Shown here piece after piece: positions 2,982-26,502 of a stretch of 32,000 nt of DNA; position 1 is the stretch's first letter; the number at the start of each line of letters is the position of its first letter. The stretch spans positions 1-32,000 of the forward strand of contig LVZN01000002.1 in the NCBI GenBank assembly GCA_001695645.1, given 5' to 3'. The translations under genes were made by a program, and so were the position numbers. This DNA comes from Erysipelotrichaceae bacterium MTC7 (GTDB taxonomy: Bacteria; Bacillota_I; Bacilli_A; Erysipelotrichales; Erysipelotrichaceae). Below the pieces are notes generated by a model that saw nothing but the letters and a program-made list of their open reading frames with translations, ran no database searches and was not told where the DNA came from.

Positions 2982-3004
2982 CCTCTGGACACTTTGTCCA
3001 GAAG
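2982..3004 (-). repeat. ICE palindrome copy R1
   Basis: CCTCTGGACACTTTGTCCAGAAG, centre CTT on the plus strand. It starts immediately after the stop codon at 3005. Confidence 0.9.
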
Positions 3005-3205
3005 TCAATAGGGGCTCCGCTCATAGTAGGCGCGGGCCTCCTCCAGTGTGGTATAGTCGAAAATCTCGTGGAGCTCCATCATCACTTGCTGAATGTCGGC
3101 GGGCTTGAAACCGCACCGTTCCATCGCGGAGATCACATAGCCCCGGCAGGCCCCCTCGCTCCACGGCTGAGAGAGCAGGGCCGCCAATTCTGGATCGTAG
3201 TTCAT
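3005..3205 (-). CDS. Small hypothetical protein (66 aa)
   Basis: ATG at 3205 (MNYDPELAALL...) is preceded by AAAGGGGAA. Confidence 0.5.
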   Translation of the reverse strand: MNYDPELAALLSQPWSEGACRGYVISAMERCGFKPADIQQVMMELHEIFDYTTLEEARAYYERSPY

Positions 3206-3441
3206 AGAGCGTTCCCCTTTTTCATAAAGATATAGGGGAGCGCCGCGCTCATTTTCTTGCCCCGTCATAAGACAGCATCCTCGGCGGCGGCGCTCCCCCG
3301 CAGAGAGGGGCGGCGGCTCGGAGAGCCGGACATTGATCCGGCCCCGCGCTATGGCTGTTGGCCCCCGCGTCCTCTTTGCGGAGAGGGAGAAATCCTCCTC
3401 TCATATACCTCCAGAAAAAAGGGCGAAAAGGAGATAGCAGA

Positions 3442-3864
3442 TCAGAAATTTTTTCTCAAATATTTTTTCATGTGCGTAATGCCGCTTTTCACAGAGCGGC
3501 GGACAGCGCACTTGTCCACGCCCTCCTCGCGGGCGATCTGGCGGTAGGTCTTGCCGAGGATCAGATAAGCGTCCACCCGGCGGCCCTGGACTTCCGGCAG
3601 GGAGTTAAGGGCGTTCCACAACAGATAGAACATCTCCTTGCGATCCAGGAGCTCCTGGGGGCTGGGCTCGTGAACACAGGCGGAGTATTCGATCCCGTCA
3701 TCACAGTCCAGGGAATAATAAGCCCTGTTGTAGCGCACCCGCTCCGCATGGGCGGCCTCGGCCCGCTTGCTGGCCATGAGCGCCTCGGCCACTTCATCGG
3801 TGACTTCGATATACTCATTGGTTAAGTACCAAGGGTAATAGTCTTTCAGATTGATAGTAGTCAT
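3442..3864 (-). CDS. Sigma-70 region-4-like HTH regulator of conjugative transposons
   Basis: 140 aa. The C-terminal LILGKTYRQIAREEGVDKCAVRRSVKSGITHMKKYL resembles the sigma region 4 HTH, and the position next to the recombinase module matches Tn916/Tn1549-type elements. Confidence 0.75.
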   Translation of the reverse strand: MTTINLKDYYPWYLTNEYIEVTDEVAEALMASKRAEAAHAERVRYNRAYYSLDCDDGIEYSACVHEPSPQELLDRKEMFYLLWNALNSLPEVQGRRVDAYLILGKTYRQIAREEGVDKCAVRRSVKSGITHMKKYLRKNF

Positions 3865-3945
3865 TATATTTTCCTCCGTTCAGATTTTTGTGGGTGGGAG
3901 ATCCAAACGGAGGCTGGCGGAGATCGACAGCCGGGGCCGCCAGCT

Positions 3946-3964
3946 TTGGGACAGCTTGTCCCAA
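3946..3964. repeat. Variant palindrome with the same 8-3-8 architecture
   Basis: TTGGGACA-GCT-TGTCCCAA, about 80-100 nt upstream of the sigma-like gene start. It shares the GGACA/TGTCC core with the 14-copy family. Confidence 0.6.
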
Positions 3965-4214
3965 GGTGAGGATATATAAAAGCGCCCGTACAGCATGACG
4001 CTATACGGACGCACGAAAATATATTTCTTTTTACATACTTAAATATTTCATGTTCGTAGCCAAACTGCCCCGGTGGGGGAACTACGCTTTTTTTAGCTGG
4101 TGAAGATCATGGGTAGTGTGAAAAAGCAAAATGAACACGACGATCCCCCCATGGAAACCGCCGTGTTCCTCCTAAAGTCATCGTATAAGGCGGTAGCTTT
4201 GATTGATACCCGCC

Positions 4215-4266
4215 AAAAAACAAAAGAGCCGATAACTCGCACCCAAGGGCTACGGATTATCGGCTC
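4215..4266 (-). terminator. Rho-independent terminator of the cfr-like gene
   Basis: The minus strand reads GAGCCGATAA...TTATCGGCTC (10-bp stem) followed by TTTTGTTTTTT. The stem includes the last codons and the TAA stop. Confidence 0.6.
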
Positions 4267-5507
4267 TGCGTCTGTGCGTCTGGCTCTTTGATAATAGATA
4301 TATGAAATTGTTTGACACAGATAAGCATTTCACTTTTGCATTTGGGACAAAAGAGTGGGAAATTGTCAAGTATCGTGTCCTTTCGGATTTTAAGTCGTGT
4401 TTTGCTCTTGCACACAGGACACAAGAGCCATTCAAAAGACTGTTCTTGTATAGCGGACATTGTTCTCTCTCCTTGTTTTTGATCGTCACGGTAGGCCCCC
4501 GCCAACTGGCCACAAGCAGCGTTAATATCGGAGCCAAATTGCGTTCGGATATTGACGCTAATTCCTGCATTATGAATGATACGGCAAAAGGCCTTTATTC
4601 GTGTGTGGCTTGAGGGCACCATAGTTTCCGTAACTGTCGTTTGATTGTATGGGATTAAATCTAAATGGTATAGTGGCAAATACTTTTTGTGTTTGAATAA
4701 CAACTTGGTAAGTTGCTCTGCGTGTCTGTCGCTGTCATTGACATCCTTTAGCATGATGTATGCCAAAAACACCTTGCGATTTGTTTGCCGAATGTGCTGA
4801 TCTAATGTATCCAGTACCTGACCAAGGGGGTATGTTTTAGTTATTGGCATGAGCGTTTCCCTCAGACGGTCAGTAGGTGCGTGGAGGGAATAGGCCAGAT
4901 TGACTTGCGGATATTCTCTTGTCAATTTTTGAATACCCGGCACGATACCGATAGTCGAAATGGTGATGCGTCGCTGGGACAGCCCGAACAGTTCCGGGGC
5001 GGTCAGATCATGCAGGGCTTCAAAAACTTGTGGATTAGCGAACGGCTCTCCCATTCCCATAAAAGAGATACTGTTGATACTGCATCCTTGTTGCATAAAA
5101 TATAGGATTTGGTCGGTAATTTCATCCACAGTCAAGTTTCTGCGTAATCCCAAAGTCCCTGTTGCGCAAAACTTACAACCGAAGCCGCAACCGCTTTGAG
5201 ATGAAATGCAAAAGGAGTTCCAGCCCTCTTTATAAAACAGACCCACCGTTTCCACACGGTTTCCGTCCGACAGTTCAAACAGCACCTTGTCAGTTTGCAT
5301 TGATTTCTCATGATGGATCGCCTTGATCTCCACAACAGTTTCACCAAACTGCTCCACCAACTTTTCGCGCAGCGTTTTTGGAAGCAACTTCATATCTTCA
5401 AAACGCATAATTCCTTGTAGGAACACAGCATCAAGCAGTTGCTTATAACGATACTCAGGTAAGCGCATATCCGCTATGAGCTGTTTCATTTTTTTATACT
5501 TGGACAT
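4257..5507 (-). CDS. cfr: Cfr-family radical-SAM 23S rRNA methyltransferase fused in frame to a Cys-rich KTR domain
   Basis: 416 aa. The first 349 aa align along their length with my recollection of Cfr (GCGFGCKFCATG radical-SAM cluster, SFMGMGEP, DINAACGQL). The last 67 aa are MSAIQEQSFEWLLCPVCKSKTRL...CPKCKSE...EPDAQTQSR, and this part keeps its own AAGGAGAG SD and ATG at 4458-4460. RBS AGGAGAAAA lies before 5507. The variant (cfr(C)-like?) cannot be assigned without alignment. Confidence 0.9.
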   Translation of the reverse strand: MSKYKKMKQLIADMRLPEYRYKQLLDAVFLQGIMRFEDMKLLPKTLREKLVEQFGETVVEIKAIHHEKSMQTDKVLFELSDGNRVETVGLFYKEGWNSFCISSQSGCGFGCKFCATGTLGLRRNLTVDEITDQILYFMQQGCSINSISFMGMGEPFANPQVFEALHDLTAPELFGLSQRRITISTIGIVPGIQKLTREYPQVNLAYSLHAPTDRLRETLMPITKTYPLGQVLDTLDQHIRQTNRKVFLAYIMLKDVNDSDRHAEQLTKLLFKHKKYLPLYHLDLIPYNQTTVTETMVPSSHTRIKAFCRIIHNAGISVNIRTQFGSDINAACGQLAGAYRDDQKQGERTMSAIQEQSFEWLLCPVCKSKTRLKIRKDTILDNFPLFCPKCKSEMLICVKQFHISIIKEPDAQTQSR

Positions 5508-5529
5508 AATTATATTTTCTCCTGCTTAT

Positions 5530-6006
5530 TTAATCGCAATCTTTCCTGTCTTGGTTCACCTCGTCCATAATGCGATAAAGTTTCTCGATCAAGCGACAAT
5601 TATATTTTTCATTCAAACGAATATAAAGCTCTCTTTCTTCCGGTGATAATTCCGCAAGAGCGTCAAGCTCTGCCATGCGCAATATGCCAACCGTCTTTTC
5701 GGCAAAATCTCTACCAAACTCTGTGAACGCTATATTTTTCTTATTCCTTGTTCCGGGGATGGGCGAAAGAAACGCCACCCCTTTCTTTTGCAGGGCAGCT
5801 ACGGCGGTGTTGATAGTTTGCTTGGGAATAGACCACTCGCTGCACAGGTCATACTGAGAGCACGGCGCCTCTGCGTCCAGCAGCGTATACAGTACCCCAA
5901 GTGAGCTATCAGAGATACCAATAGAAAAAGCAACTTTGTGATAAAGAGCTTCACTTTTATTGGACATTTTATTGAGTTGAGATAGCTGTTCTTTTATCTC
6001 TGTCAT
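5530..6006 (-). CDS. MarR-family transcriptional regulator
   Basis: ATG at 6004-6006 (MTEIKEQ...) is preceded by GGAGGG. The winged-HTH region is SQYDLCSEWSIPKQTINTAVAALQKKG. Its stop is 22 nt before the cfr start, so the two are probably co-transcribed. Confidence 0.85.
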   Translation of the reverse strand: MTEIKEQLSQLNKMSNKSEALYHKVAFSIGISDSSLGVLYTLLDAEAPCSQYDLCSEWSIPKQTINTAVAALQKKGVAFLSPIPGTRNKKNIAFTEFGRDFAEKTVGILRMAELDALAELSPEERELYIRLNEKYNCRLIEKLYRIMDEVNQDRKDCD

Positions 6007-6018
6007 CTTAATCCCTCC

Positions 6019-6071
6019 AAACATCCGTACTCGGACACTTATATTGTAGTCCGAATACGGATGTTTGTCAA
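6019..6071 (-). promoter_or_regulatory. marR-cfr promoter with an overlapping 18-bp inverted-repeat operator
   Basis: Minus strand: TTGACA (6066-6071), 17 nt, TACAAT (6043-6048). The arms AAACATCCGTACTCGGAC (6019-6036) and GTCCGAATACGGATGTTT (6049-6066) are complementary at 17 of 18 positions. Confidence 0.55.
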
Positions 6072-6095
6072 GAGGACGACGTAAATCAAATCTTT

Positions 6096-7475
6096 TGCCC
6101 GCGAAATTCCTCACAAACATCAAATAAAAGTGCCCGCCAAAATCACTTGACGAGCACCAAGGATGCTATCTTTGTGTTAGCAAATACAAGGAGCATCCAA
6201 AATGAGGATAACACAAATGGCAAAAAAAGAAATAACAAAAAGCAAAGCAAAAGAATACCGAAGTGCTAAAAAGAAACGCAAAGGCGAAATCCTTGATGCA
6301 GTTTGCGAAACGACTGGGTGGAGTAGAGATAACTGTAGGCGTCAGTTAAAACGAGCATCTAGAAGATCTGTAAAAACATCGACCAAAAGGAATCGTACGA
6401 AACCTTTGAAATATTCGTTTGAAGCGAGACTCATTCTCTTTAATCTCTGGTGCATTTCAGGTCAATGTTGCGGCCAATACATGGTTTATCAGATCGAGGA
6501 TGGACTCATTGAACGCGTCATTGCGCATAAGGAGTTACATCGCTTCAAAGGCAACAAAGGCCCTTATATCGAAGCAGGAGACCCCATAGTAGCAGAACTT
6601 AAGTCCATGTCTTCGGCGACAATAGACCGCTATCTGGCTGCGTATAAGAAGGAACTTATGCCGCTTTCAAAAACAACAACAAAACCCGCTTCCTATCCCT
6701 TACGAAATGAAATTCCATTTGGTAAATCATATACAGAGCACCAGGAACCTGGCTGGCTCTCTACAGATACGGTTGCCCACTGCGGAGCCAATCTTAGAGG
6801 GGATCATATTTGGACCTTAAACAGTACCGATACGGTTACTGGATGGACAGAAACACTCTCCATTAAGAGTCGAGCTTCCATCTTCGTTAAAGAAGGACAT
6901 GAAGAAATATTACCTCGTTTTCCGTTTCCTGTTTTAGGGATAAATTACGATGGTGGAAGTGAATTTATTAATCGAGAAATGATTGATTACGCAAAATTAC
7001 AGGACTACCAAATGACCAGGTCTCGTCCTTACCATTCCAATGACAATGCTCATATAGAACAAAAAAATGGTGAAATAGTTAGACGATATGCTTTTAGGTA
7101 TCGGTATAACGGAGATACAGCTATGGCTGTTCTTAACGATCTTTGGTACTGGGTGAATATTAGGAAAAATTATTTGTTGCCAACCAGAAAATGTATTGGG
7201 CATACCAAAACAAAGTCTGGCAGAACAAGGGGTATTTACGATAGACCCATGTCACCAGCTAGACGATTGTTAAACTACGATTGTGTATCAGAAGATGATA
7301 AACAAGAAATCTGTCAAATGCTCTGTGATTTAAATGATGCTGAGGTCACCAGACAGATTCTTGATCTCCAATCTAAACTAATTGGACTTGCTTCGGCTCG
7401 TCAATTATTAGATTATGTTAACCATGAGGTTCAGCAGGTGATTTCTGCATGATTCCTTTTAGAATTTCGCGGGCA
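6096..7475 (+). mobile_element. Insertion sequence (about 1380 bp) with 14-bp perfect terminal inverted repeats and TG...CA ends
   Basis: TGCCCGCGAAATTC at 6096-6109 and its exact reverse complement GAATTTCGCGGGCA at 7462-7475 bracket a single DDE transposase ORF. T-runs on both flanks make any target duplication ambiguous. Confidence 0.65.
6202..7452 (+). CDS. DDE (rve/integrase-core) transposase
   Basis: 416 aa. Basic N-terminal HTH-like region, then an integrase core with STDTVAHCG, INYDGGSEFIN and YHSNDNAHIEQKNG (D, D, E context). The IS family was not determined. Confidence 0.85.
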   Translation: MRITQMAKKEITKSKAKEYRSAKKKRKGEILDAVCETTGWSRDNCRRQLKRASRRSVKTSTKRNRTKPLKYSFEARLILFNLWCISGQCCGQYMVYQIEDGLIERVIAHKELHRFKGNKGPYIEAGDPIVAELKSMSSATIDRYLAAYKKELMPLSKTTTKPASYPLRNEIPFGKSYTEHQEPGWLSTDTVAHCGANLRGDHIWTLNSTDTVTGWTETLSIKSRASIFVKEGHEEILPRFPFPVLGINYDGGSEFINREMIDYAKLQDYQMTRSRPYHSNDNAHIEQKNGEIVRRYAFRYRYNGDTAMAVLNDLWYWVNIRKNYLLPTRKCIGHTKTKSGRTRGIYDRPMSPARRLLNYDCVSEDDKQEICQMLCDLNDAEVTRQILDLQSKLIGLASARQLLDYVNHEVQQVISA

Positions 7476-7655
7476 TTTTTATGTGATGTATCACGGAGGA
7501 ACGACTTAGTATAGTCTTTCAATATTTGTTCGTAGCTGTCTTTCAAAATACATAATTTTATCATTTTGATATGGCGAAACAAAATACTACATAAACATAA
7601 AATTACACTTCGTTCAAATAATATCACCCGAAATGTAAAATAATATAGGGGTGAG

Positions 7656-8018
7656 ATGAAAATGTACCAAGATGAACGAAAACTTGATTTTCACGCGCTG
7701 GGCCGGGAAATCAAGCGCAAAAGAGAAGCCAAAGGCTGGACACAGGAATACCTCGCACAGCTTGTAGACCGCACCCCGCGCTCTATCATGTATTTTGAAA
7801 ACAGAGGACAACACCCCAGCCTCAATACTTTTTATCAGCTCGTCACCCTGTTGGATATTTCCGTAGATGATTTTTTCTATCCAGACAAGCAGAACGGCCA
7901 AAGTGATTGCCGAAAGCATATAGATCACTTGCTTAACGAAATGGACGAAAAAGAGCTAACCATTATTGAAGCCACAGCGGAGGGACTGAAAAGGGCCCGG
8001 AGAACGGAGGATGCGTAA
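7656..8018 (+). CDS. XRE-family HTH regulator of the ICE
   Basis: HTH segment WTQEYLAQLVDRTPRSIMYFENRGQHPS. The second ATG at 7662 has better spacing from GGGGTGA and may be the true start. Confidence 0.8.
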   Translation: MKMYQDERKLDFHALGREIKRKREAKGWTQEYLAQLVDRTPRSIMYFENRGQHPSLNTFYQLVTLLDISVDDFFYPDKQNGQSDCRKHIDHLLNEMDEKELTIIEATAEGLKRARRTEDA

Positions 8019-8080
8019 GAAAAGCGTGTACCTCCGTTTTTTCATGCCATGTTGCGGGGATGCACGTTTCGGCAAGCAGG

Positions 8081-8130
8081 GCAGGTGTGCCCACACCTGC
8101 TATTTTTGCGTGGCCGGGGGCCCGCAAAAA
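8081..8130. terminator. Two adjacent hairpins between convergent genes, probably a bidirectional terminator
   Basis: GCAGGTGTG-CC-CACACCTGC (8081-8100) is followed by TATTTTT. TTTTTGCGTGGCC-GGG-GGCCCGCAAAAA (8103-8130) is flanked by T and A runs. Confidence 0.5.
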
Positions 8131-8160
8131 TGCTTGTTGGGGAGCTCCCCAAACCCGCTG

Positions 8161-8187
8161 CACCTCTGGACAAAGTGTCCAGAGGTG
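8161..8187 (+). repeat. ICE palindrome copy R2 (longest, perfect 12-3-12)
   Basis: CACCTCTGGACA-AAG-TGTCCAGAGGTG, 22 nt downstream of the relaxase stop. Confidence 0.92.
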
Positions 8188-8209
8188 CTTGTTATCTGCG
8201 GCCCCGGCG

Positions 8210-9685: not shown

Positions 9686-9688
9686 GCA

Positions 9689-9711
9689 CTTCTGGACAAA
9701 GTGTCCAGAGG
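9689..9711 (+). repeat. ICE palindrome copy R3
   Basis: CTTCTGGACAAAGTGTCCAGAGG, 3 nt after the stop of the 9715-10005 gene. Confidence 0.9.
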
Positions 9712-9714
9712 TCA

Positions 9715-10005
9715 TCAGCTGCACATAAAATCCTGCAAGGCGTATTTTACCCCATACAGGCGCTCCAGCAGCCACTCCCCGATGGCCGGGAGCCCAAAGG
9801 GGGAAACAAGGAACGCCAGCACCAGCATGGCGATGCACCCGGTTTTCAATCCGGCAAACAGCCCGCAGACCGCCAGCAGGACAAAGGCGGTACACGCCAG
9901 CCAGCAGAACGCGCCCGCGATGCAGGAGAGGAACGAGAGCACCGCCACGGCGAGGATCAGCGCCAAAACAAAGGGGGCCGCGATGATTTTCAAAATTGTA
10001 CGCAT
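9715..10005 (-). CDS. Small integral membrane protein (96 aa, about 3 TM segments)
   Basis: Strongly hydrophobic throughout. ATG is preceded by TAGGAGGTATGAACC. Confidence 0.6.
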   Translation of the reverse strand: MRTILKIIAAPFVLALILAVAVLSFLSCIAGAFCWLACTAFVLLAVCGLFAGLKTGCIAMLVLAFLVSPFGLPAIGEWLLERLYGVKYALQDFMCS

Positions 10006-10050
10006 GGTTCATACCTCCTACAAAAGTTTGATATTTGCCTCTATATGTAT

Positions 10051-10079
10051 ATTATAACTCCGTAAGAGGGGGCAAACAA
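10051..10079 (-). promoter_or_regulatory. Candidate promoter for the membrane-protein/relaxase genes
   Basis: Minus strand: TTGTTT (10074-10079), 17 nt, TATAAT (10051-10056). Palindrome R4 lies about 22 nt upstream of the -35. Confidence 0.4.
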
Positions 10080-10100
10080 GGATGGCTCCGGCTGCCCCCA

Positions 10101-10123
10101 CCTCTGGACAAAGCGTCCAGAAG
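10101..10123 (+). repeat. ICE palindrome copy R4 (one arm mismatch)
   Basis: CCTCTGGACAAAGCGTCCAGAAG. It follows a separate hairpin CCGGGGAGCG-CAA-CGCTCCCCGG at 10133-10155 downstream of mobC. Confidence 0.85.
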
Positions 10124-10161
10124 CCGGGGCAGCCGGGGAGCGCAACGCTCCCCGGCAAGGG

Positions 10162-10512
10162 TCAAAGCTCTACCACCGCCGACAGCTTTTTGAGCAGGTC
10201 GGACAACGGTTCCCACAGGGTTTCATAGTCCCGCTGGAGGGCCTTGATCTCCTCCGGGTAAATGCCGCCGTAGGTATTGGCCTGGATCGCCACCTGGTTT
10301 AGATTATTGGAGCACCGACGCTGGAGCGATACCAGTTCCCGGACGGGCGAAAGGTCAACATGGAGCACATAGCCATTGAGGGCCATTTTCCGCACATAGG
10401 CCCCCAAGTTGCGGACGCCCGCCTCGGCCATGCGCTCCCGGATCAGCGCCAGCTCCTCCTCGGACACCATCACATGAAGATGGACAGGACGGCGGCGCTT
10501 TTTCTGGCTCAC
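10162..10512 (-). CDS. mobC: MobC-family relaxosome accessory protein
   Basis: 116 aa. RPVHLHVMVSEEELALIRERMAEAG (RHH-like) and RRCSNNLNQVA, typical of the MobC family. The GTG start overlaps the upstream TGA (GTGA). Confidence 0.85.
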   Translation of the reverse strand: MSQKKRRRPVHLHVMVSEEELALIRERMAEAGVRNLGAYVRKMALNGYVLHVDLSPVRELVSLQRRCSNNLNQVAIQANTYGGIYPEEIKALQRDYETLWEPLSDLLKKLSAVVEL

Positions 10513-11485: not shown

Positions 11486-11487
11486 CA

Positions 11488-11510
11488 CCTCTGGACAAAG
11501 TGTCCAGAAG
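11488..11510 (+). repeat. ICE palindrome copy R5
   Basis: CCTCTGGACAAAGTGTCCAGAAG, 2 nt upstream of the ATG at 11485. Confidence 0.9.
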
Positions 11511-11639
11511 CAGCGGGGATAGATGTGGAAAGCATTTTGACAAAGCGGGGGCGGGACATAGAAACATACGGCCCGCCCCAAAACCGGCCCCGGAAAGCCT
11601 TGTGATCAGCGGGTTTTCCGGGGCCTAATTTTCCACACA

Positions 11640-12895: not shown

Positions 12896-13147
12896 TCAGT
12901 TTTCCTCCTTTTCCGCAGGCCCCGACTTCTGGACACTTTGTCCAGAGGTGCCCTCCCGGAGCTGCTGAAGCACCAGGGGCAGCTCCTCCAAAGAAATGCT
13001 CAGGCCCCGCACGATGTCCACGATCTCGCTGTTTTCGGCCTCCAGCTTATTTTTCTCCAGCTCCTTGAGCCGGGCCTGCTGCTCGTTGATTTTGGCCTTG
13101 ACCTTTTCGATCTCAGCCTGGATTTTTTGGCTTTTGCTTGCCGCCAT
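12896..13147 (-). CDS. DUF4315-like coiled-coil protein
   Basis: MAASKSQKIQAEIEKVKAKINEQQARLKELEKNK.... ATG at 13147 after GGAGGT. The C-terminal tail contains palindrome R6 in frame (TSGQSVQKS). Confidence 0.72.
   Translation of the reverse strand: MAASKSQKIQAEIEKVKAKINEQQARLKELEKNKLEAENSEIVDIVRGLSISLEELPLVLQQLREGTSGQSVQKSGPAEKEEN
12926..12948 (-). repeat. ICE palindrome copy R6 (in frame in a CDS tail)
   Basis: CTTCTGGACACTTTGTCCAGAGG, translated on the minus strand as TSGQSVQKS. Confidence 0.9.
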
Positions 13148-13159: not shown

Positions 13160-14815
13160 TCATGGTAAACGCCCGTAGGCGTAGAAATGGGACTGCCAGT
13201 AATTTGTGTTCAAATTCGCGTAGCTGATGGGATCGCCACAATGGATCATCATCCCGTCCCCCACATAGATGCCACAATGGGAAACGCCGGTTGTATCATA
13301 GGTGCCCTCGAAAAAGACCAGATCGCCGGGGCGGGGTGCGCCGGTGGGGGTGCAGATGTTGTAAAGCCCCTGGGCCCCCAGGCGGCCCACATCCCAGCCG
13401 GAGTGATTGATCACCCAGGACACGAAGCCGGAGCAGTCAAAGGAAGTGGCCGGGGAACTGCCGCCCCACACATAGGGATAGCCCAGGTATTTTTCCGCCT
13501 CGCCCAAAATGGCCGCAAAGGTTTCATCGTCCAGATATTCCTCCGGCACATCGTAGTCGGCGGGCGGTTTCGTGTATTTGTCCACATACCCGGACTCCGG
13601 GAACAGGTCGGGCCGGTTGCCCAGGCAGGACATATAGAGGGCATACCGGGCCAGCTCCTCCTCGCCCATAAGCTCCAGGGGAAGGTGGGAAAGGGTTTTG
13701 TTTTCCAGCGTCACATAGCAGATATACCAGGAATAGGGATCGCCCTCGCTGTCGTACCGGGTTTCCCGCACCACACGCTCCGTCAGAATATACTGGCGGT
13801 CAAAAAGCATTTGCAAAGTGCCCTGCACCTGGGCAAGCGTCCATTCCCCCTCGTGGAGCACAGAGAGGATGGAGATGAGCACATAGGGATCGTGCTCAAT
13901 GGTGTCCAGGTCAAAGTGGTACTCGTCATAATCGTGGGTGCTTTCGTAGGTGTCCAGGTAGTTTTGCAGCTCCGCCTCCATATCTGCATAGGCGGCCTCG
14001 GCCCCCAAAATATCCTCGTCCTTTGAGGGGTAAGTGGTAGCGCCCACGGCACCCGCGCCGGAGTTACCCAGCATCACCAGGGAGGACGAACAGGACTGCA
14101 TGATAAAGAGCAGGAGCAGACAGGCCAGGGCCAGGAGCACCCCCACGGGATGCCGCTTGATAAAGCCTACCGCCTGGGCCCCGGCCTTTTCCGTGGCGGC
14201 GGCGGTCTTTTTCGCCGCCTTTGCCGCCCCAGCCCTGGCGGTCTGCCGCGCCTGCTTGCGGTATTGCCGTTTCTGCCAAAACTGTTTCCAGGCATTTTGC
14301 CTCAGCTCCGGGTTCTCCTGGGCGGCCACGCGGAAATGATGATCCGCCGTAGCCTTGATATATTTGGACTCCGCCCGCTGGACAGCCTTTGCCGGGTGTT
14401 CCCGGATTTTCTTCTTAACGAACCGGGAGCCATGCCGCAGGGCGGTTTCACCCGCCAGCTCGGAGCGGTGGGCCCCCTCGGTGCCCACGTTCTCCTGCTC
14501 CACCTCAAAGAGCTTTCCATGCACAAAGCCGTGGACGGCGCCGCCGGCGGCCCGGCCCACCCGCCTCACCGGGCCGGGCTTTTTGGGCGGCTTTTGTTTG
14601 GACAGCTTATCCTTTGCCTGTTCCAGCTTCTCCCCGCGCTTTTCCATGCGGAGCTTTGACGAGGCGGCCTGTTCCTGGTTGCTTTTCTGCCGGAACTTTG
14701 ACTTCTGGACATTTTGTCCAGAGGTAGCCTCCGTCCTGGCCCCGTCAGGGGAGCCCTCCGGCGCGTCCTGCCGGGGAGCCGCCTCCGGGCTGGGTTTATT
14801 CGGTTTTCGCTTCAT
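13160..14815 (-). CDS. NlpC/P60 cell-wall hydrolase of the conjugation apparatus
   Basis: 551 aa. TM segment GVLLALACLLLLFIM. C-terminal NlpC/P60 domain with FDCSGFVSWV catalytic Cys and SHCGIYVGDGMMIH. Palindrome R7 is in frame near the N-terminus. Confidence 0.88.
   Translation of the reverse strand: MKRKPNKPSPEAAPRQDAPEGSPDGARTEATSGQNVQKSKFRQKSNQEQAASSKLRMEKRGEKLEQAKDKLSKQKPPKKPGPVRRVGRAAGGAVHGFVHGKLFEVEQENVGTEGAHRSELAGETALRHGSRFVKKKIREHPAKAVQRAESKYIKATADHHFRVAAQENPELRQNAWKQFWQKRQYRKQARQTARAGAAKAAKKTAAATEKAGAQAVGFIKRHPVGVLLALACLLLLFIMQSCSSSLVMLGNSGAGAVGATTYPSKDEDILGAEAAYADMEAELQNYLDTYESTHDYDEYHFDLDTIEHDPYVLISILSVLHEGEWTLAQVQGTLQMLFDRQYILTERVVRETRYDSEGDPYSWYICYVTLENKTLSHLPLELMGEEELARYALYMSCLGNRPDLFPESGYVDKYTKPPADYDVPEEYLDDETFAAILGEAEKYLGYPYVWGGSSPATSFDCSGFVSWVINHSGWDVGRLGAQGLYNICTPTGAPRPGDLVFFEGTYDTTGVSHCGIYVGDGMMIHCGDPISYANLNTNYWQSHFYAYGRLP
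14702..14724 (-). repeat. ICE palindrome copy R7 (in frame in a CDS, centre variant)
   Basis: CTTCTGGACATTTTGTCCAGAGG, translated as TSGQNVQKS. Confidence 0.88.
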
Positions 14816-17517: not shown

Positions 17518-17535
17518 TCCTTTCCGGCCCGGCTA

Positions 17536-17558
17536 CCTCTGGACAAAGTGTCCAGAAG
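17536..17558 (+). repeat. ICE palindrome copy R8
   Basis: CCTCTGGACAAAGTGTCCAGAAG, 11 nt after the C5-methyltransferase stop. Confidence 0.9.
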
Positions 17559-17569
17559 TACGGGTAATT

Positions 17570-18631: not shown

Positions 18632-19212
18632 AAGACCTCCTTTTGGCCCGCTGCTTCTGGACACTTTGTCCAGAAGTCCGGGATCGTGGGCTCCACCTCG
18701 TTGCCCCATACATCCCAGCCGGGCGGGGACTGCCTGGCGAACAGCTCCACCCTGGGCAGGTCGCCCATGAGAGCCACGATCTTTTCACGGGCCTCCTCCG
18801 GTTTGCGGCTGTGTTCCCGGATAGGGGAAATGATAAACTGATGGACATTCGCCGCTTGCCGTTTGGGGTGTCCCCGTGTCGCCAGCAGGCAGACCTCCGC
18901 GTTGCCCCGCGTCCAAAAGCCCAGGCCGTAAAACCAGCCGGGGGACTTGCGGTTTTGTTTGAGCCAGACAAAAGCCACAGATTTATAGGTGAAGCCCCAC
19001 GCCTGGATCAGCCGCAGGGCCTCCGGGAGCTGCGGGAACGTGGCCCACAGAAAAAGCGCGCTGTCCTTGGCCGCAAGGTCGGCCACAGGCAACGCGCATA
19101 GTTCCGATATGCTCATGGTGGGGTAATGGTTTTCCGCCGCCCCCTGTATCTTTTTTGCTGTGTAGCGCCAGGGTGGATCGGCATAAATGATAGAATAGCG
19201 TCCGATAGTCAA
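18628..19212 (-). CDS. MT-A70-family N6-adenine DNA methyltransferase
   Basis: IIYADPPWRY (DPPW motif). TTG start overlaps the upstream TGA. The C-terminal tail carries palindrome R9 in frame (FWTKCPEA). Confidence 0.85.
   Translation of the reverse strand: MTIGRYSIIYADPPWRYTAKKIQGAAENHYPTMSISELCALPVADLAAKDSALFLWATFPQLPEALRLIQAWGFTYKSVAFVWLKQNRKSPGWFYGLGFWTRGNAEVCLLATRGHPKRQAANVHQFIISPIREHSRKPEEAREKIVALMGDLPRVELFARQSPPGWDVWGNEVEPTIPDFWTKCPEAAGQKEVL
18654..18676 (-). repeat. ICE palindrome copy R9 (in frame in a CDS tail)
   Basis: CTTCTGGACACTTTGTCCAGAAG, with symmetric CTT/AAG arms. Confidence 0.9.
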
Positions 19213-20000
19213 ACTCCTTTCTCCCCGGACTCTACCGCCGAACGCGCCACACGGATGCGCTCACTGGCGGCAGCGTAGTAGGCCGGGACGGTTTCAAAAC
19301 AAATAAAGCGGCGGCCCGTGTTGAGGGCGGCCACCGCCGTTGTGCCGGAGCCCGCGCAGATGTCCGCCACCACCTCGCCGGGCCGGGTGTAGGTTTTAAT
19401 AAAATACTCGCACAGTTCCACGGGCTTTTGGGTGGGGTGGATGGTGCGCTGCACCGTGGGGAATGTGAGCACATTCCCCGGAAAACGAAGCCCGTCCTCC
19501 GAGCCCCCGGATGAGCGGACAAACTTTCCATAGTTCGGGCTGTCCCCGTTGTTTTTCACATTCCGCTTGTAAGGCTTGCCCTGTTCAAACTGCGGATTGT
19601 AAAGGGGAAGTTTCTGATAGAACACCAGGATATTCTCCGTCTTTTTCAGCGGGGCCCGCCTTGCGTTGAGAAAACCTGTGCAGCGGCTCTTGTACCACAC
19701 CCACTCATAGCGGAGCATAGGGAGGTTGGAGGCCCCCAGCACCTTATCATAGGGGCACTGAGCGAAGAACAGCACCGCCCCCTCCGGCTTGACAGCCCAT
19801 TTCACCGCCTCCCACAGCTCCGGGAGGGACAGCGGCACATCCCAAAAGTTCCGGGTAGTGCCGTAGGGCGGATCGGTCAGCAGCATATCCACCGAATGAC
19901 GGGGCAGCGCCCGCAGCCCCGCGATGCCGTCTTGCAGGAACAGGCCCTCCTGGGACTTCTGGACACTTTGTCCAGAGGTATCGAATATCGTTTTTTCCAT
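19209..20000 (-). CDS. N4/N6 DNA methyltransferase (N6_N4_Mtase family)
   Basis: LLTDPPYG motif, and HPTQKPVELCEYFIKTYTRPGEVVADICAGSGTT. ATG at 20000 after GGGAGGTG. Palindrome R10 is in frame at residues 8-16 (TSGQSVQKS). Confidence 0.88.
   Translation of the reverse strand: MEKTIFDTSGQSVQKSQEGLFLQDGIAGLRALPRHSVDMLLTDPPYGTTRNFWDVPLSLPELWEAVKWAVKPEGAVLFFAQCPYDKVLGASNLPMLRYEWVWYKSRCTGFLNARRAPLKKTENILVFYQKLPLYNPQFEQGKPYKRNVKNNGDSPNYGKFVRSSGGSEDGLRFPGNVLTFPTVQRTIHPTQKPVELCEYFIKTYTRPGEVVADICAGSGTTAVAALNTGRRFICFETVPAYYAAASERIRVARSAVESGEKGV
19956..19978 (-). repeat. ICE palindrome copy R10 (in frame in a CDS N-terminus)
   Basis: CTTCTGGACACTTTGTCCAGAGG. Confidence 0.9.
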
Positions 20001-20014
20001 TGAAGCACCTCCCG

Positions 20015-20881: not shown

Positions 20882-20890
20882 AATCCCTCC

Positions 20891-21240: not shown

Positions 21241-21268
21241 TAATAAATAAGCCGCCATCTCTGGCGGC
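21241..21268 (-). terminator. Rho-independent terminator-like hairpin after traG/virD4
   Basis: The minus strand reads GCCGCC-AGAGAT-GGCGGC then TTATTTATT. Confidence 0.45.
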
Positions 21269-21277
21269 AGGTTACGA

Positions 21278-21300
21278 CCTCTGGACACTTTGTCCAGAAG
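21278..21300 (-). repeat. ICE palindrome copy R11
   Basis: CCTCTGGACACTTTGTCCAGAAG, 6 nt after the VirD4 stop. Confidence 0.9.
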
Positions 21301-21306
21301 TAGGAT

Positions 21307-23160: not shown

Positions 23161-23653
23161 GCACCGCCTCCTTTGTGCGTTCCAGCTTTTGGGCGGGCTG
23201 GCGGGCCGCTTCTGCGGCGGCCTCCTTGATCTGCTCCCGGATGGGGGCCTTTGCGGATTTGGTGCGCTTTAGCAGCCGTTTGGAATATTCGGAGAAACAG
23301 GCTGTGATCGCGTCGGCCTGCCCCGCCTTGAAGAACAGTAAGTGTTTATCCGGCGCGACTTGATAAAAAGCATAGTCCACATTCCATTTCCGGGCCACCC
23401 GGTCAAAGAGGGCCGGGGCCTCCACCTCGATACTGTTGGTGGCGGCCCCGTGGCCCATGAGCTGCCCCACCGTCTGCCTGCCGTGGGGCGTCTGTTTTGC
23501 CCGGTGGTGTTTGGCGATCTTCCGGGCAATCGCTCCCAGCACACAGGCAAGCCCCCGCGCCGTGAGCTTGCTTGCCTTGATAGATACCGCTATGGTTCGC
23601 CTGGAAATATCTTCATCTACCAGCCAAATCCCTCCTTCCCATGAAAAAAGCAC
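23147..23653 (-). CDS. PcfB/DUF3801-like protein
   Basis: The sequence and its position directly upstream of the coupling protein fit PcfB. The ORF-track GTG start lies in the flank of palindrome R12. GGAAGGAGGG is followed at good spacing only by CTG (23621-23623), so the start is uncertain. Confidence 0.68.
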   Translation of the reverse strand: MLFSWEGGIWLVDEDISRRTIAVSIKASKLTARGLACVLGAIARKIAKHHRAKQTPHGRQTVGQLMGHGAATNSIEVEAPALFDRVARKWNVDYAFYQVAPDKHLLFFKAGQADAITACFSEYSKRLLKRTKSAKAPIREQIKEAAAEAARQPAQKLERTKEAVHEDR

Positions 23654-23675
23654 CTCTGGACAAAGTGTCCAGGAG
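23653..23675 (+). repeat. ICE palindrome copy R12 (one arm mismatch)
   Basis: CCTCTGGACAAAGTGTCCAGGAG, 5 nt after the ardA stop. Confidence 0.87.
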
Positions 23676-23680
23676 TGCCG

Positions 23681-24390
23681 CTATCGGTCTGAATGGCCTT
23701 GCTCCGGGTTGGGGCGCTCCGCCGCCTGGGGGAAACGGCCAATGACTTCTTTGTAAGCCGCCATCTGCTCCCGGATGGAGAGCCGCGGGTAAGCAAAAAC
23801 CTTGTGTTCGGCGGGAATGTCCTCCCGCCCGTGGTAGTATTCAATAAACTGGCTGCCATTGGGGAGGAAAAAACCACCTTTGACAAAGCTGCCATCCTCA
23901 TTGATCCGCATATCCCGGCCATACGCCTCATAATCGAAATAATCCCGCAGGTTTTCGGGAATGTCGATCATCTCCATGTCCTCCGCGTAAATACGGCCCA
24001 GGGTTTCATCATCGGACACGCCGATATAGAAATCGTAGCAATCCAGGTTTTCCGCAAGGTTGATAAGGTCGCCCGCGCCGGAGGTGTGCTCGCCGCTGGC
24101 GACAGCCGCCTCAAACTTCTCCAAATCGCTTTTGTCCAGCTCGGAGAGCAGGCAGGCCAGATGGTTGAGCTCGTCAATGCTTTCGTATTCCCCAGGCAGG
24201 CATTGAGTTCCGGCAGGTCGCCGCCATAGTCGGCAATAAAAATCTCCTCATAGCGGATATTGTCAATGCCGATTTGTTTTAGGACTTCCTGTACCTCCTC
24301 CCTGGTGGTGGGGAATTTCAGAAGTGAGCTTGCCAGTTCGCCCTCGTTGTATTTCCCAAGATTGGTGACATACGCCTCGATCACCGCCAT
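23681..24390 (-). pseudogene. ardA: ArdA antirestriction gene with a -1 frameshift in a homopolymer run
   Basis: The N-terminal part MAVIEAYVTNLGKYNEGEL...DLPELNACLG is in one frame (start 24390). The C-terminal part ...EKFEAAVASGEHT...DCYDFYIGVSDDE...DYFDYEAYGRD is in another. Adding one G to the GGGG run (plus-strand CCCC, 24190-24193) restores LGEYESIDELNHLACLLSELDKSDLEKFEAAV. Confidence 0.85.
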
Positions 24391-24391
24391 A

Positions 24392-24733
24392 TCAGCGTCG
24401 CCTCTGGCCCTTGACAGTGAGGATGCCGTCCAGGGTGGTGGCGGTGATCCCAAGCCGCTGGGCCACCGCGATGTCATTTTTCACCGCTTCATCGACATGG
24501 CTCCCGCATACTACCAGCACACGGGAGCGCCGGAGCAGGTCGCGCCCCATGTCAATACCGCTTTTATGCTCCTCCGGCACCGCGTCATTGAGGAACAGCG
24601 GCAGATAGAGCATCGGGCAGATGGGGGAATACCCCGCATCGTAGACAATACGGCAATATTTAGCCGCCTGCTCCATAACCTCGCACTCGCCGCCGCGCCA
24701 TGCGGCGGTCACATACGCAAGGGGTCGTTTCAT
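24392..24733 (-). CDS. DUF4406-like / nucleoside deoxyribosyltransferase-like ICE protein (function tentative)
   Basis: 113 aa. SPICPMLYLPLFLND...RVLVVCG pattern. ATG after GGAGGTTTGGATT. Confidence 0.55.
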   Translation of the reverse strand: MKRPLAYVTAAWRGGECEVMEQAAKYCRIVYDAGYSPICPMLYLPLFLNDAVPEEHKSGIDMGRDLLRRSRVLVVCGSHVDEAVKNDIAVAQRLGITATTLDGILTVKGQRRR

Positions 24734-25001
24734 AATCCAAACCTCCGTTTCTTTTCCTTATATATAGGTAGGGTCAACCCTATCCCCCGCCCTTTCCCTA
24801 TCCAGGGAAAGGGGGCGGCTCTGGAGGATATACCCCCGCCGCTCGCCGGGAATAGCACAGCCGGGGCAGACCGTAAAGGGCAAGCCGCCGCAAAAGCGGC
24901 GGGCGTTCCGCCCCTTGACGGCCCACTCCCGGCTGTGCGGCGTCAAACCCGGCGACGGGGGATATATCACCGCAGAGCCCATCCCAAGCGCGGAGCGCAT
25001 A

Positions 25002-25024
25002 CCTCTGGACAAAGTGTCCAGAAG
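25002..25024 (+). repeat. ICE palindrome copy R13
   Basis: CCTCTGGACAAAGTGTCCAGAAG, 11 nt after the ParB-like stop. Confidence 0.9.
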
Positions 25025-25035
25025 CAGGGGGCCGG

Positions 25036-26502
25036 TCACTTGTCGAGCTCGTTCTTCTTCTCCGGCTTTGCCAGTTCGGGCGGCTGCTTCTCTTTCCACT
25101 CGTCCAGCAGGGCCATGATCTGTTCTTTCATTTTGGCAGGAGTGATTTCCTTGCCGAAATACTTGTTGAGTTCGTCGGTACTGATGATCACGTTGTCAAC
25201 CTCCCTTTTTTCTTCGCTTAAAATGCCGTCGATCACATCTCCGTTGAGCAGGCCCTCCTGGTCGAGCTCCCGGAGCCGCTTTGCCTGTTTGACCGAGGGG
25301 GAGGACTGCTCCCCATCAATAGACACGGCGATGAGCCGCTGGTTTTCCGGCTTGATATACGACAGCTCCACGGCGGGCATAAAGCCCATATTTTTTGTGT
25401 CTACCTTTTCCAGAAGCTCCGGCACAAGATGGTTGAGCCGGACATAACGGAGCACCTTTTTATAGTTCATATCATGCTCCTTGCCCACGATCTCCACCGA
25501 GAGCTTACCCAGGGCCTCCGCCTCCTGGTCATTTTTGGGCCGGGCCCCCTGGCGCTTGATGGCCTCCAGCTCCAAATCCAGGAGTTTTGCCAATTCGCTG
25601 GGGAGAGGGTCGCCCCGCTGCTTGTTGCTGTTCTTCATTTCCCGGACAGCCTCAAGGTCGGTCATCTCACGGACAATACAGGGGATCTCGTCCAGGCCAG
25701 CCCGCTCACCGCCATGACAGCGGCGATGTCCCGCGATGATCTCATAGCCCTTGCCGTCCTTTTCCGGGCGGACGGTGGCCGGGGTCATAATGCCGTGTTC
25801 CCTGATCGTCCCCACCAGATCGTCCATCGCCTTATCGTCCTGCACCTTGAATGGGTGATCCCGTAAAGTATGGAATGGGTGAAGCTCCGACAGCTTCAAA
25901 TAGACGATTTTGCCCTGTTCCACCGGGCGGGGAGGCACCTCCGGCGTGGGCGGCAGCTTGATCTCCGGGGTAGGGGCCTCTGCCTCCTTGACCGGGGCGG
26001 GCTTGCCCTTTGGGACTTTCACACCGGGCCCAACACCCCCGGAACCTGTTTCCTTGTCCTTTTTTCCACCTCTGGACACTTTGTCCAGAACACCGGGGGC
26101 CGGGGACTTGCCAAGGGCCGCCTTGTCAGCCTTGGCCGGGCGGCCCTTGCGGGGCTCCGGCCCCTTTTCCGCTTTGCCGCCCTGGGGGTGATCCTGTTCC
26201 TTTGGGGGACGGCCCCGGCGCTTTGCCGTTTTTTCCTCCGGCTCCACTTTTTTATCCTGGTTGAGGGATTTCCCCGTCTTTTCAGCCTCGACCTGCGGCG
26301 CAGGCTGGGCTGGAGCGTCCTTGCCCATACCGGGGATCACAGACTGCTCCGGCTGGGGTGCCGGGCCGGTGCCAGCAGCGGGCCCCTCTACCTCTTCCGG
26401 GACAGGGGGCTTTGTTACAGCCTGGGCGTCCCCAGCAGGGCCCCCGCCAGGGTGATCCAGGACAGGGGACTCCGGGCCTGTTTTCAGTTTGTCATCTGCC
26501 AT
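25036..26502 (-). CDS. ParB/Srx-like N-terminal-domain protein with a long low-complexity N-terminus
   Basis: 488 aa. About 190 aa are rich in P, K, G, E and A. Then comes the ParB N-domain (IVYLKLSELHPF...GYEIIAGHRRCHG, GxxR motif). ATG after AAGGAGG. Palindrome R14 is in frame (VLDKVSRGG). Confidence 0.88.
   Translation of the reverse strand: MADDKLKTGPESPVLDHPGGGPAGDAQAVTKPPVPEEVEGPAAGTGPAPQPEQSVIPGMGKDAPAQPAPQVEAEKTGKSLNQDKKVEPEEKTAKRRGRPPKEQDHPQGGKAEKGPEPRKGRPAKADKAALGKSPAPGVLDKVSRGGKKDKETGSGGVGPGVKVPKGKPAPVKEAEAPTPEIKLPPTPEVPPRPVEQGKIVYLKLSELHPFHTLRDHPFKVQDDKAMDDLVGTIREHGIMTPATVRPEKDGKGYEIIAGHRRCHGGERAGLDEIPCIVREMTDLEAVREMKNSNKQRGDPLPSELAKLLDLELEAIKRQGARPKNDQEAEALGKLSVEIVGKEHDMNYKKVLRYVRLNHLVPELLEKVDTKNMGFMPAVELSYIKPENQRLIAVSIDGEQSSPSVKQAKRLRELDQEGLLNGDVIDGILSEEKREVDNVIISTDELNKYFGKEITPAKMKEQIMALLDEWKEKQPPELAKPEKKNELDK
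26069..26091 (-). repeat. ICE palindrome copy R14 (in frame in the ParB-like CDS)
   Basis: CCTCTGGACACTTTGTCCAGAAC. Confidence 0.88.

Follow-up and report, generated by a model that had tools for sequence, protein, structure and literature searches.

On plasmid RK2, KorB loads as a clamp at OB (core TTTAGCGGCTAAA), slides along the DNA and silences genes, and its sites lie in, near and far from promoters (PMC11790492). On the integrative and conjugative element (ICE) ICEclc, the ParB-like CTP clamp BisD uses bisS, a 23-bp odd-length palindrome (GAGCTATCCCCnGGGGATAGCTC), from which it spreads to control transfer genes; its sites can be intragenic (PMC12409273). Here we analysed 32,000 nucleotides of Erysipelotrichaceae bacterium MTC7 (assembly GCA_001695645.1, contig LVZN01000002.1, positions 1 to 32,000; hereafter the window), which hold a Tn1549/CTn4-like ICE with a family of short palindromes and an orphan gene of the ParB family. 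In the reading we favour, which the sequences make reasonably probable, this ParB has the palindromes as its parS/OB-like sites, which have been amplified to a density of about one per 1.5 kb.

As in the KorB–OB system, an orphan-acting ParB-family CTPase (known as such here by its sequence) is encoded on a conjugative element around which a short odd-length palindrome is repeated. Unlike RK2, which carries 12 copies of OB, the present element is integrative, belongs to a Gram-positive (Clostridia) host and has its sites at about three times the density. These sites measure 19–25 bp with a 3-bp centre and lie at cistron junctions in operons, even in the tails of open reading frames (ORFs), and no KorA or IncC partner was identified in this ICE. 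With BisD–bisS the locus has in common an ICE-encoded ParB-like protein, presumed here to form a clamp, an odd-length palindrome and sites that are partly in genes. But ICEclc has two sites against fourteen here, the sequences are unrelated, and BisD has an activator domain and a partner, BisC, in an element that also has ParA, unlike this ICE.

A parS site inside parB is a classical layout, as in spo0J of B. subtilis, and distant ParBs of the subfamily studied here likewise follow ParA and have one palindrome inside parB. In sopC of plasmid F (TGGGACCACGGTCCCA) the non-palindromic centre matters for binding (PMC3177203). The palindromes have the GGGAC/GTCCC half-site in common with sopC, but because the half-sites are spaced differently, by 1 bp, we take the resemblance as no more than a lead. 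Unlike in ParABS and SopB–sopC, the ICE of the window has neither ParA nor an in-gene site, and its copies are dispersed rather than clustered or tandem. Since no ParA/CbiA-family gene was found among the ICE ORFs, the system is not a partition system in the strict sense, and a type I partition system was rejected. ParA is found beside distant subfamily members. The features of the ParB-CTPase class that we did find are a ParB N-domain with GxxR, a replicon-specific palindrome of conserved sequence, and a site tied to parB. Another multi-site system, the stoperators of cluster A mycobacteriophages, consists of dozens of copies of one 13-bp asymmetric immunity-repressor site in short intergenic regions and co-directional operons, with a polarity relative to transcription. 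Unlike stoperators, the sites here are palindromic and a ParB-family protein is encoded.

ICEs of this family spread resistance genes among dozens of gut Firmicutes genera, and the cargo here includes a cfr-like methyltransferase. If our reading is correct, KorB (RK2) and BisD (ICEclc) would have a Gram-positive, integrative counterpart in a ParB clamp that loads at about 14 sites, and a 25-mer, one protein and one candidate specificity residue would give a tractable handle on ICE control. The kind of system, ParB-type sites, is already known; the palindrome system itself is new to the sources searched.

A palindrome family along the ICE backbone

The window was scanned for TCTGGACANNNTGTCCAGA with up to two mismatches, and 100 shuffles served as composition control. 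The scan returned 15 matches where 0.01 were expected (0 of the 100 shuffles reached 15), at 1408 (two mismatches), 2984, 8165, 9691, 10103 (one mismatch), 11490, 12928, 14704, 17538, 18656, 19958, 21280, 23655 (one mismatch), 25004 and 26071. The full motif, P1, reads ACY-TCTGGACA-AAG-TGTCCAGA-RGT and is present in 14 full copies, next to one degenerate copy and one architectural variant (TTGGGACA-GCT-TGTCCCAA, 3946-3964). On the plus strand, the centre of the full copies is AAG in 7, CTT in 6 and TTT in 1. All of them, the degenerate copy and the variant included, lie within the ICE (~25.6 kb, roughly 1116-26690, bounds set by homology with relatives) at a density of 14 copies in 23 kb; the scan found no P1 copy in the low-GC cargo (~4000-7650) or in either flank of the window. 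An earlier note, made from the letters alone, had listed 14 full copies, a degenerate one at 1411 and the variant at 3946, seven centres of each orientation (AAG against CTT or TTT), and none in cargo or flanks. The same positions were regained, and counts and absences agree.

Most copies lie 2-40 nt past a stop codon and 10-25 nt ahead of the next ribosome-binding site (RBS). At the six stops that the note had singled out (3005, 9715, 17570, 21307, 23681 and 25036) the core ends 2-13 nt from the stop codon. The idea of purely inter-ORF copies fails, for several lie inside ORFs: those at 12928, 14704 and 19958 translate as TSGQ(S/N)VQKS in ORF tails or first codons, those at 18656 and 2984 as DFWTKCPEA, and that at 26071 as LDKVSR. 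The 19-mer core is free of stop codons in all six frames. Spacing between copies has a coefficient of variation of 0.40, a regularity reached in 19 of 20,000 random placements and to which gene lengths contribute. Apart from the copy at 10103, the 13 others have no conserved flank beyond 3 nt.

Termination had been judged insufficient to explain the family, with separate terminator hairpins noticed nearby, and this judgement stands. Such terminators are present at 8080-8101 (plus), 9685-9658 (minus) and 21268-21251 (minus), the latter two following the copies at 9691 and 21280. Only 8160-8188 (plus) and 23672-23656 (minus) were flagged as intrinsic terminators, so that 2 of the 14 copies are terminator-like, and intrinsic terminators were rejected as the identity of the family.

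Palindromes inside parB genes

The proposed reader of the palindromes is encoded at 25036..26502 on the minus strand and is flanked by the copies at 25004 and 26071. It has a ParB_N domain (PF02195, 1.3e-17) with an intact GxxR motif (IIAGHRRCHGG), followed by a putative ParB-like helix-turn-helix (HTH) region (KLSVEIVGKEHDMNYKKVLRYVRLNHLVPELL). Its best solved relatives, by alignment of the N-domains, are Spo0J, ParB, Noc and KorB. The stretch KLSVEIVG..YKKVLRYVRLNHLVPELL..AVELSYI resembles a ParB HTH by eye and is kept in relatives that are 38-41% identical. Neither the link to this gene, nor a second palindrome type, nor the copies inside ORFs had been part of the earlier note, whose suggestion of repeated operator or clamp-loading sites gains support from what follows, the same palindrome being found in parB genes of the subfamily of the ICE ParB.

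The lead was a viral contig (L203) in which a palindrome of the second type, P2 (ACT-T[TC]GGGACA-NNN-TGTCCC[GA]A-AGT, found in a sister ICE clade at the same slots as P1), lies inside a ParB homologue. The contexts of this homologue led to another ICE family with the gene order ParB(1), RepA_N, Toprim primase, ParA, ParB(2). The gene of ParB(1), 38% identical to the ParB of the window, contains AACT-TCGGGACA-AGT-TGTCCCGA-AGTT, which encodes TSGQVVPK; that of ParB(2), 41% identical and situated after ParA, contains AACT-TCTGGACA-AAT-TGTCCAGA-AGTT, which encodes TSGQIVQK. Both palindromes occupy homologous codons just ahead of the HTH and have ACT...AGT flanks like the copies of the window. Between them a synonymous Ser codon (TCG/TCT) switches along with Pro CCG/Gln CAG, so that the two changes compensate each other. 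The arms are TCGGGCCA/TGGCCCGA in a 92% variant of ParB(1) and TCGGACCA/TGGTCCGA in the second paralogue of L203, and the dyad is retained in three further in-gene arm pairs (TCGACACA/TGTGTCGA, TCTGTTCA/TGAACAGA and TCTCACCA/CGGTGAGA). In total, seven distant subfamily genes have a 25-bp palindrome in parB, and four of these were read beside a ParA gene.

For three of the palindromes the DNA was predicted from the peptide before the gene sequence was read. The predictions were exact for P0286 (TSTQVVSK, ACTTCGACACAAGTTGTGTCGAAG) and P0365 (TSVQLEQK, ACTTCTGTTCAACTTGAACAGAAG) and one base off for P0382 (TSHQLGEK, ACTTCTCACCAACTCGGTGAGAAG), whose palindrome has one inner mismatch. Each of the three genes lies after a ParA gene, and L318, the locus of P0365, has a single, in-gene copy within 13 kb. 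A profile search collected 3408 clusters of the subfamily at E<=1e-30, and the linker peptide K[HR]QG.R.DLTS-x-Q-x-x-x-K is conserved in 48 diverse members. Residues 3, 6 and 7 of TSxQxxxK co-vary in the manner that codons within a palindrome have to: D goes with G and P/Q, T with V and S, A with G and P/R, R with V and G, V with E and Q, and H with G and E. By hand count, 17 of the 23 motif-bearing members are codon-compatible with a perfect palindrome, against a rough chance estimate of ~8%. The in-gene variation is compensatory and therefore indicates selection on the DNA (or RNA) dyad and not on the peptide; as judged from these genes, site and parB diversify jointly, which is the hallmark of a cognate cis site. 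Members of this very large subfamily appear to carry their own site in parB, with a diversification that can be read from peptide covariation, and would provide ready natural protein-site pairs for work on the evolution of ParB specificity.

One large ICE family with two paralogous ParBs of this subfamily (L311-L316, e.g. L313 239-5481) is integrated next to plsY. It also encodes RepA_N, a DUF3991/Toprim primase, ParA, YodL and a giant SNF2/N6-methylase protein, and each of its ParB genes carries a different palindrome type.

Conservation and confinement to mobile elements

Outside the window, exact matches were sought in one genome per species, divided into eight-kb tiles. The motif is present in at least 118 tiles, which represent more than 30 genera, gut Clostridia and their relatives. 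Most of them are homologous to the backbone of the window at just 75-87% nucleotide identity, and the 19-mer is exact nonetheless. At orthologous sites the 19-bp core is 93.5% conserved, versus 82% for the surrounding 100 nt, and the remaining core differences are mostly an inverted centre triplet. AAG/CTT is kept in either orientation and flips between orthologues, as expected of a symmetric reader of double-stranded DNA. Two distant conjugative elements (VirB4 33-39% identical) have neither this ParB nor recurrent palindromes.

Among the matches listed, complete genomes have 1-3 matching tiles each, all of them ICE-like regions, and host chromosomes outside mobile elements are free of the motif. 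The family is therefore not a host-wide repetitive extragenic palindrome (REP). This accords with the ICE-specific family proposed at the outset: among the matches listed, no comparable density across host chromosomes was seen, and related ICEs do carry the motif. REPs are spread chromosome-wide and associated with a RAYT (TnpA-REP) gene. Like REPs and bacterial interspersed mosaic elements (BIMEs), the copies are short, conserved, imperfect palindromes in intercistronic or 3'-untranslated positions, in both orientations and in lineage-specific families. Unlike them, they are found on mobile elements only, without RAYT, at stable positions and in several cases in coding sequence, and a REP/BIME identity was rejected on the tile distribution and the lack of an HUH transposase in the ICE. 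That the earlier note did not recognise the motif as a described element is borne out by an exact-sequence literature search, which found no description, and by an Rfam gathering scan with 0 matches; literature on Tn1549 oriT or palindromes yielded nothing relevant.

An empty-site search over 556 instances found two polymorphic locations, of which the one at 11490 is the only clean case in the backbone. There, the site is present or absent among close relatives as part of a ~47-bp block flanked by an ambiguous 4-5 bp direct repeat, (A)GATG. This stability led us to reject an active miniature inverted-repeat transposable element (MITE); the palindrome family is old and positionally stable. That is, the miniature self-spreading element suggested earlier is not borne out as a current activity, and of the proposed comparison with repeat-free relatives, insertion-like behaviour was seen at 11490 alone in the backbone, the other sites holding their positions.

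The same data bear on the idea that the palindrome is a selfish miniature element (MITE- or REP-like) or a recombination site for cassette exchange, with ParB uninvolved. It would account for the polymorphism at 11490, for a C5 methylase gene that lies between two copies where relatives have one copy and no gene, for cargo arrays punctuated with P2-like copies beside a recombinase 80-94% identical to that of the window, and for copies that are stop-free in all frames and sit in ORF tails. Homology breaks, too, fall near sites in 29% of cases versus 4.7% expected, but such breaks cluster in any intergenic region, and as the sites are intergenic anyway we judged this signal weak and uninformative. 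Against it stand the stability of orthologous positions, the absence of the element from host chromosomes outside mobile elements (in the matches described above), and the ICE ORFs, among which we found no RAYT, no HUH/IS200-like transposase and no integron integrase (IntI). Moreover, it leaves the in-parB palindromes with their compensatory variation unexplained, and we regard it as quite improbable. Integron attC sites were rejected likewise, for the ICE has a large serine recombinase instead of IntI and the sequences are unrelated; only the layout of a gene plus a 3' site is alike.

The C5 cytosine methylase gene (17570-18640) is confined to a few of the relatives compared (L086, L008, L038 and others). 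Those that lack it have a single palindrome between MT-A70 and PrgI, and the outer flanks of the window's two copies match this empty site. The cargo arrays (L213 1696-8966 and L138) hold IrrE-like, BlaI/BlaR1, insertion sequence (IS), GRAM and ankyrin genes, and behind every unit comes a P2-like palindrome whose AGCTGGGGCGG flank is conserved.

Two site types and a candidate specificity residue

P1 (TCTGGACA) and P2 (TYGGGACA) are one symmetric base pair apart, T.A versus G.C, and P2 is more degenerate, with a more variable centre. ICEs of the P2 clade have no P1 copies. Their VirB4 is 86-90% identical to that of the window, versus at least 93% in P1 elements, and the ParB core is 68-81% identical in P2 ICEs and 82-98% in P1 ICEs. 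Covariation of site type with each ICE protein is confounded by clade, and only ParB gave a small, interpretable set of differences: I94V, R173H and L190R are the only near-fixed ones between P1- and P2-associated proteins. Comparison of the NikA-like protein, the relaxase, the HTH_3 (Xre-type) protein and the sigma-like protein gave no differences that track site type. A MAFFT alignment puts position 190 at the beginning of the first helix of the HTH; ParB(2), which has a P1 site, carries Leu there, and ParB(1), which has a P2 site, carries Arg. Residue 190 may read the distinguishing base pair; an arginine in contact with the P2-specific guanine would be chemically sensible, a suggestion offered purely as a hypothesis.

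Recombinant ICEs with both site types (L257, L296, L258 and L244) have crossovers inside virB4 or at module borders; L258 has the compact order ParB, DUF7768, C5 methylase, PrgI, VirB4. Another mobile element carries P2 and P1 in tandem (ACT-TCGGGACAACTTGTCCCGA-AGT-GACC-TCTGGACAAAGTGTCCAGA-AGT) just upstream of a Cys_rich_VLP gene. Such tandems occur at L107 (e.g. 1840-1885), L040, L041, L012, L013 and ~15 other loci; the genes of this element include RepA_N, Cys_rich_VLP, ant(6) and an ABC-F protein, and a relative (L153) is without both palindromes. The element may exploit both ICE types. A P2-type ICE is also held by a 94.6-kb Subdoligranulum variabile record labelled 'plasmid 6' (OY725840.1; L120/L122), in which the start of the record truncates virD4, and trbL and virD4 are separated by a 10.8-kb insertion; the record may be misassembled, or the ICE disrupted.

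A proposed model of ParB loading and its rivals

We propose that ancestrally one 25-bp palindrome (ACT-8 bp-N3-8 bp-AGT) lay inside parB, in the linker codons ahead of the HTH, the gene usually following parA. In the present ICE family, parA and the in-gene site would have been lost and the site multiplied across the element to nearly every gene junction, mostly just past stops and ahead of the next RBS, with a few copies in tolerant ORF tails. ParB dimers would recognise the palindrome, bind CTP, close as clamps and slide, and many loading sites could keep the co-directional array of transfer genes loaded despite transcription. The likely outcome would be an element-wide control of transcription, comparable to that by KorB on RK2 and BisD on ICEclc, or a role in handling the excised circle. 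The sequences themselves show the sites and how well they are kept, the ParB gene, and the palindromes in parB with their compensatory changes; binding, clamp loading and regulatory outcome at the palindromes are what we infer.

Several observations weigh against this model. The HTH of the ICE ParB is not covered by Pfam, NCBIfam or PDB profiles, which match the N-domain only, and the AlphaFold model (predicted local distance difference test score of 43) is unusable. The window's own ParB is without an in-gene site at the pre-HTH codons, and the in-gene palindromes of its relatives could instead serve as RNA hairpins in parB mRNA. Every backbone protein splits along the same two clades as P1 and P2, so covariation with any one protein is confounded by phylogeny, and the recombinant ICEs have mixed P1 and P2 sites, each of which follows local ancestry where the crossover lies in virB4. 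One BLAST alignment places the ParB(1) residues near 190 differently, and given this ambiguity the specificity reading stays a hypothesis. Finally, a pure operator model predicts neither the tight placement of copies past stops, nor the cassette-like gain of genes together with a site, nor the consistent polarity of arm variation relative to gene direction. Given placement, cassettes, polarity and spacing, an additional or alternative role at the level of RNA or recombination may exist.

One such extension, which we hold to be rather unlikely, is a system of two layers, in which the sites of the orphan ParB load clamps that coat and control the entire ICE and also serve as junctions for swaps of genes or modules between co-resident elements. 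P1 and P2 would then be orthogonal 'address codes' set by one base pair and Leu/Arg190, and small mobilisable elements with P2 and P1 in tandem would exploit both. The swap-junction role was proposed because every module ends in the same 25 bp, with the C5 methylase cassette, the punctuated cargo arrays and the mixed P1/P2 recombinants as examples.

The placement of the copies can also be read as that of sense-strand RNA hairpins, that is, intercistronic 3'-end stem-loops which, like REPs, would stabilise or punctuate polycistronic transfer transcripts and be read by an RNA-binding factor or RNase. The position of most copies between stop codon and RBS agrees with this, as does the fact that cargo or accessory genes bring along a single copy 3' of the gene. 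Non-coding P1 copies have flanks that pair on the mRNA-sense strand as U.A or U.G with rare mismatches (21/42/1 at pair -1), and the 11-bp sense stem amounts to -15.1 kcal/mol versus -11.2 on the other strand. At the only site between convergent genes (8162..8186), the flank pairs Watson-Crick on both strands. But core pair 3 has the bias reversed on the sense strand (21 A.C versus 1 G.U), and in a larger independent set, arm transitions concentrate in the 5' arm whether they yield wobble or mismatch. A 'relaxed 5' arm' describes this set better (126:31) than sense wobble does (106:51), and sense-strand wobble was dropped as proof of an RNA hairpin. ORF-internal sites have the opposite polarity although a synonymous change would restore pairing, the centre kept in both orientations would give different RNA loops, and Rfam has no match. 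A conserved structure does not by itself account for the exactness of the sequence, or for a P1/P2 difference that all sites show in concert. RNA hairpins as the basis of the family thus seem unlikely to us, and the RNA or single-stranded DNA hairpin named among the early candidates fits the arm asymmetry less well.

Individual copies, the transfer origin and other regulators

The degenerate copy (CCCGGACA AAG TGTCCAGA, 1405..1429) lies in the serine recombinase gene, where it encodes ...EKLLDTLSGA... and has one perfect half-site; its core (1408-1426) is kept in orthologous recombinase genes that are 92-96% identical to the window's. The P1 copy at 2981..3005 abuts the stop of ORF 3005-3268 and forms the DFWTKCPEA codons at the start of ORF 2725-3024. 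The P2-like variant (GCT-TTGGGACA-GCT-TGTCCCAA-GGT, 3943..3967) is situated ~80 nt upstream of a sigma-70 region-4-like gene (3442-3864, minus). The site between convergent genes, a P1 copy at 8162..8186, separates the HTH_3 gene (7656-8018, plus) from the relaxase stop (8210). P1 copies then follow 5 nt past the DUF5699 stop (9688..9712, stop at 9715, with its separate terminator at 9685-9658) and, with one mismatch, after the NikA/MobC-like stop at 10162 (10100..10124). The P1 copy at 11487..11511, upstream of the RBS of the DarA_C gene, is the sole backbone site missing in some relatives. At 12925..12949 P1 lies inside the 3' end of a DUF4315 ORF (TSGQSVQKS), upstream of a CD1107-like gene, and at 14701..14725, with the centre TTT, 74 nt past the VirB4 stop in the N-terminal part of an NlpC/P60 ORF (TSGQNVQKS).

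The two P1 copies that flank the C5 methylase cassette lie at 17535..17559, between the C5 methylase stop (17570) and the PrgI gene, and at 18653..18677, in the 3' tail of the MT-A70 ORF (DFWTKCPEA). The copy at 19955..19979 forms codons 8-16 of the N6_N4 methylase (MEKTIFD-TSGQSVQKS-). Further P1 copies are found 8 nt past the VirD4 stop (21277..21301, stop at 21307, a separate terminator following at 21268-21251), 7 nt past the ArdA stop (23652..23676, one mismatch, stop at 23681, then a T-run) and 13 nt past the stop of the ParB-family gene (25001..25025). The last one (26068..26092) is in a low-complexity N-terminal extension of the ParB-family ORF and is a P1/P2 hybrid in many relatives.

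The copy at 10103 is directly upstream of the promoter of the DUF5699-relaxase operon (CATCCTTGTTT...TATAAT) and for this reason may belong to an origin of transfer (oriT). Extended to the whole family, this reading would make the palindrome the oriT inverted repeat and the additional copies hairpins of the transferred single strand, for binding of relaxase or accessory proteins or for priming of the complementary strand. Its stem of 8-11 bp and 3-nt loop are similar to those of MOBQ and MOBP oriT repeats, the spacing of copies is regular, as described above, and copy 10103 has the NikA/MobC-like gene on one side and the relaxase operon on the other. On the same strand it is followed by ATCCTTG, one mismatch from the MOBP nic consensus YATCCTGY, and other small elements have in common with the ICE only this palindrome and GGAGGCATCCTTG. 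However, ATCCTTG belongs to the -35 region of a promoter, and this region is found again at 2715, upstream of the recombinase gene, with no palindrome beside it, which weakens the heptamer as nic; nothing nic-like flanks the 13 remaining copies. Among ICEs whose P1 sites are identical, the relaxases share only 52-82% identity and, like the NikA-like proteins, have no differences that track the site; nor was a primase found among the ICE ORFs. An oriT function of the family as a whole is accordingly very unlikely in our view. The CCGGAGYCATCCTTGTTK...TATAAT module after 10103, which recurs at 2715 and stands next to a palindrome in small elements, may be a regulated promoter, an oriT or both.

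Two near-identical copies of this promoter module (CCGGAG(C/T)CATCCTTGTT(T/G)-N-TATAATAT) at 10045-10090 and 2680-2725 on the minus strand precede the DUF5699-relaxase operon and the recombinase gene, respectively. The same module with an adjacent palindrome is present in otherwise unrelated small elements (L070, L095, L044, L102, L116, L024 and L027).

In the mob-operon promoter, and likewise in a recombinase promoter of L027, a palindrome precedes the -35 by ~13 bp, a position that would also suit operators of another ICE regulator, either the Xre-type HTH_3/DBD_HTH protein (7656-8018) or the sigma-70 region-4-like protein (3442-3864), the latter with the P2-like copy upstream of its gene. 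Both DNA-binding proteins are conserved in the ICE family, but neither differs in step with site type, and their identity ranges overlap fully between P1 and P2 elements. Since both are also absent from the distant ParA-ParB loci with an in-parB palindrome, we consider this explanation highly improbable.

Similar motifs occur on phage contigs. Tandem arrays of TTGGGACA-N3-TGTCCCAA or TCCGGACA-GGG-TGTCCCGA (L206 750-812, L166 11839-11901 and L192 8094-8272) lie inside a putative initiator gene directly upstream of DnaB and are probably origin iterons. In seven contigs of ~50% GC (L152, L199, L155, L170, L126, L124 and L178), the region of small genes next to the terminase has TTTGGGACA-NNN-TGTCCCAAA in 4-5 dispersed copies whose centres vary, and no ParB was seen in these tiles. 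From these contexts (initiator/DnaB, or terminase without ParB), the phage palindromes were set aside as unrelated uses of a similar motif.

All backbone genes of the ICE are on the minus strand. They encode the large serine recombinase, a MobA/VirD2-type relaxase and the NikA/MobC-like protein for recombination and mobilisation; VirB4, VirD4, PrgI, TrbL and CD1107-like proteins for transfer; and three orphan DNA methylases, DarA_C, ArdA and the ParB-family protein. The low-GC cargo (4257-7452) comprises three genes, namely a cfr/RlmN-like radical-SAM gene with a Cys_rich_KTR domain fused at the C-terminal end, one for a regulator of the MarR family and one for an rve-type IS transposase, and is probably a resistance module of the linezolid/phenicol type. 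ArdA (23681-24477) is represented by two overlapping minus-strand ORFs, of which 23968-24477 matches the N-terminal and 23681-24124 the C-terminal part of the Pfam model; this split is likely a frameshift or a pseudogene.

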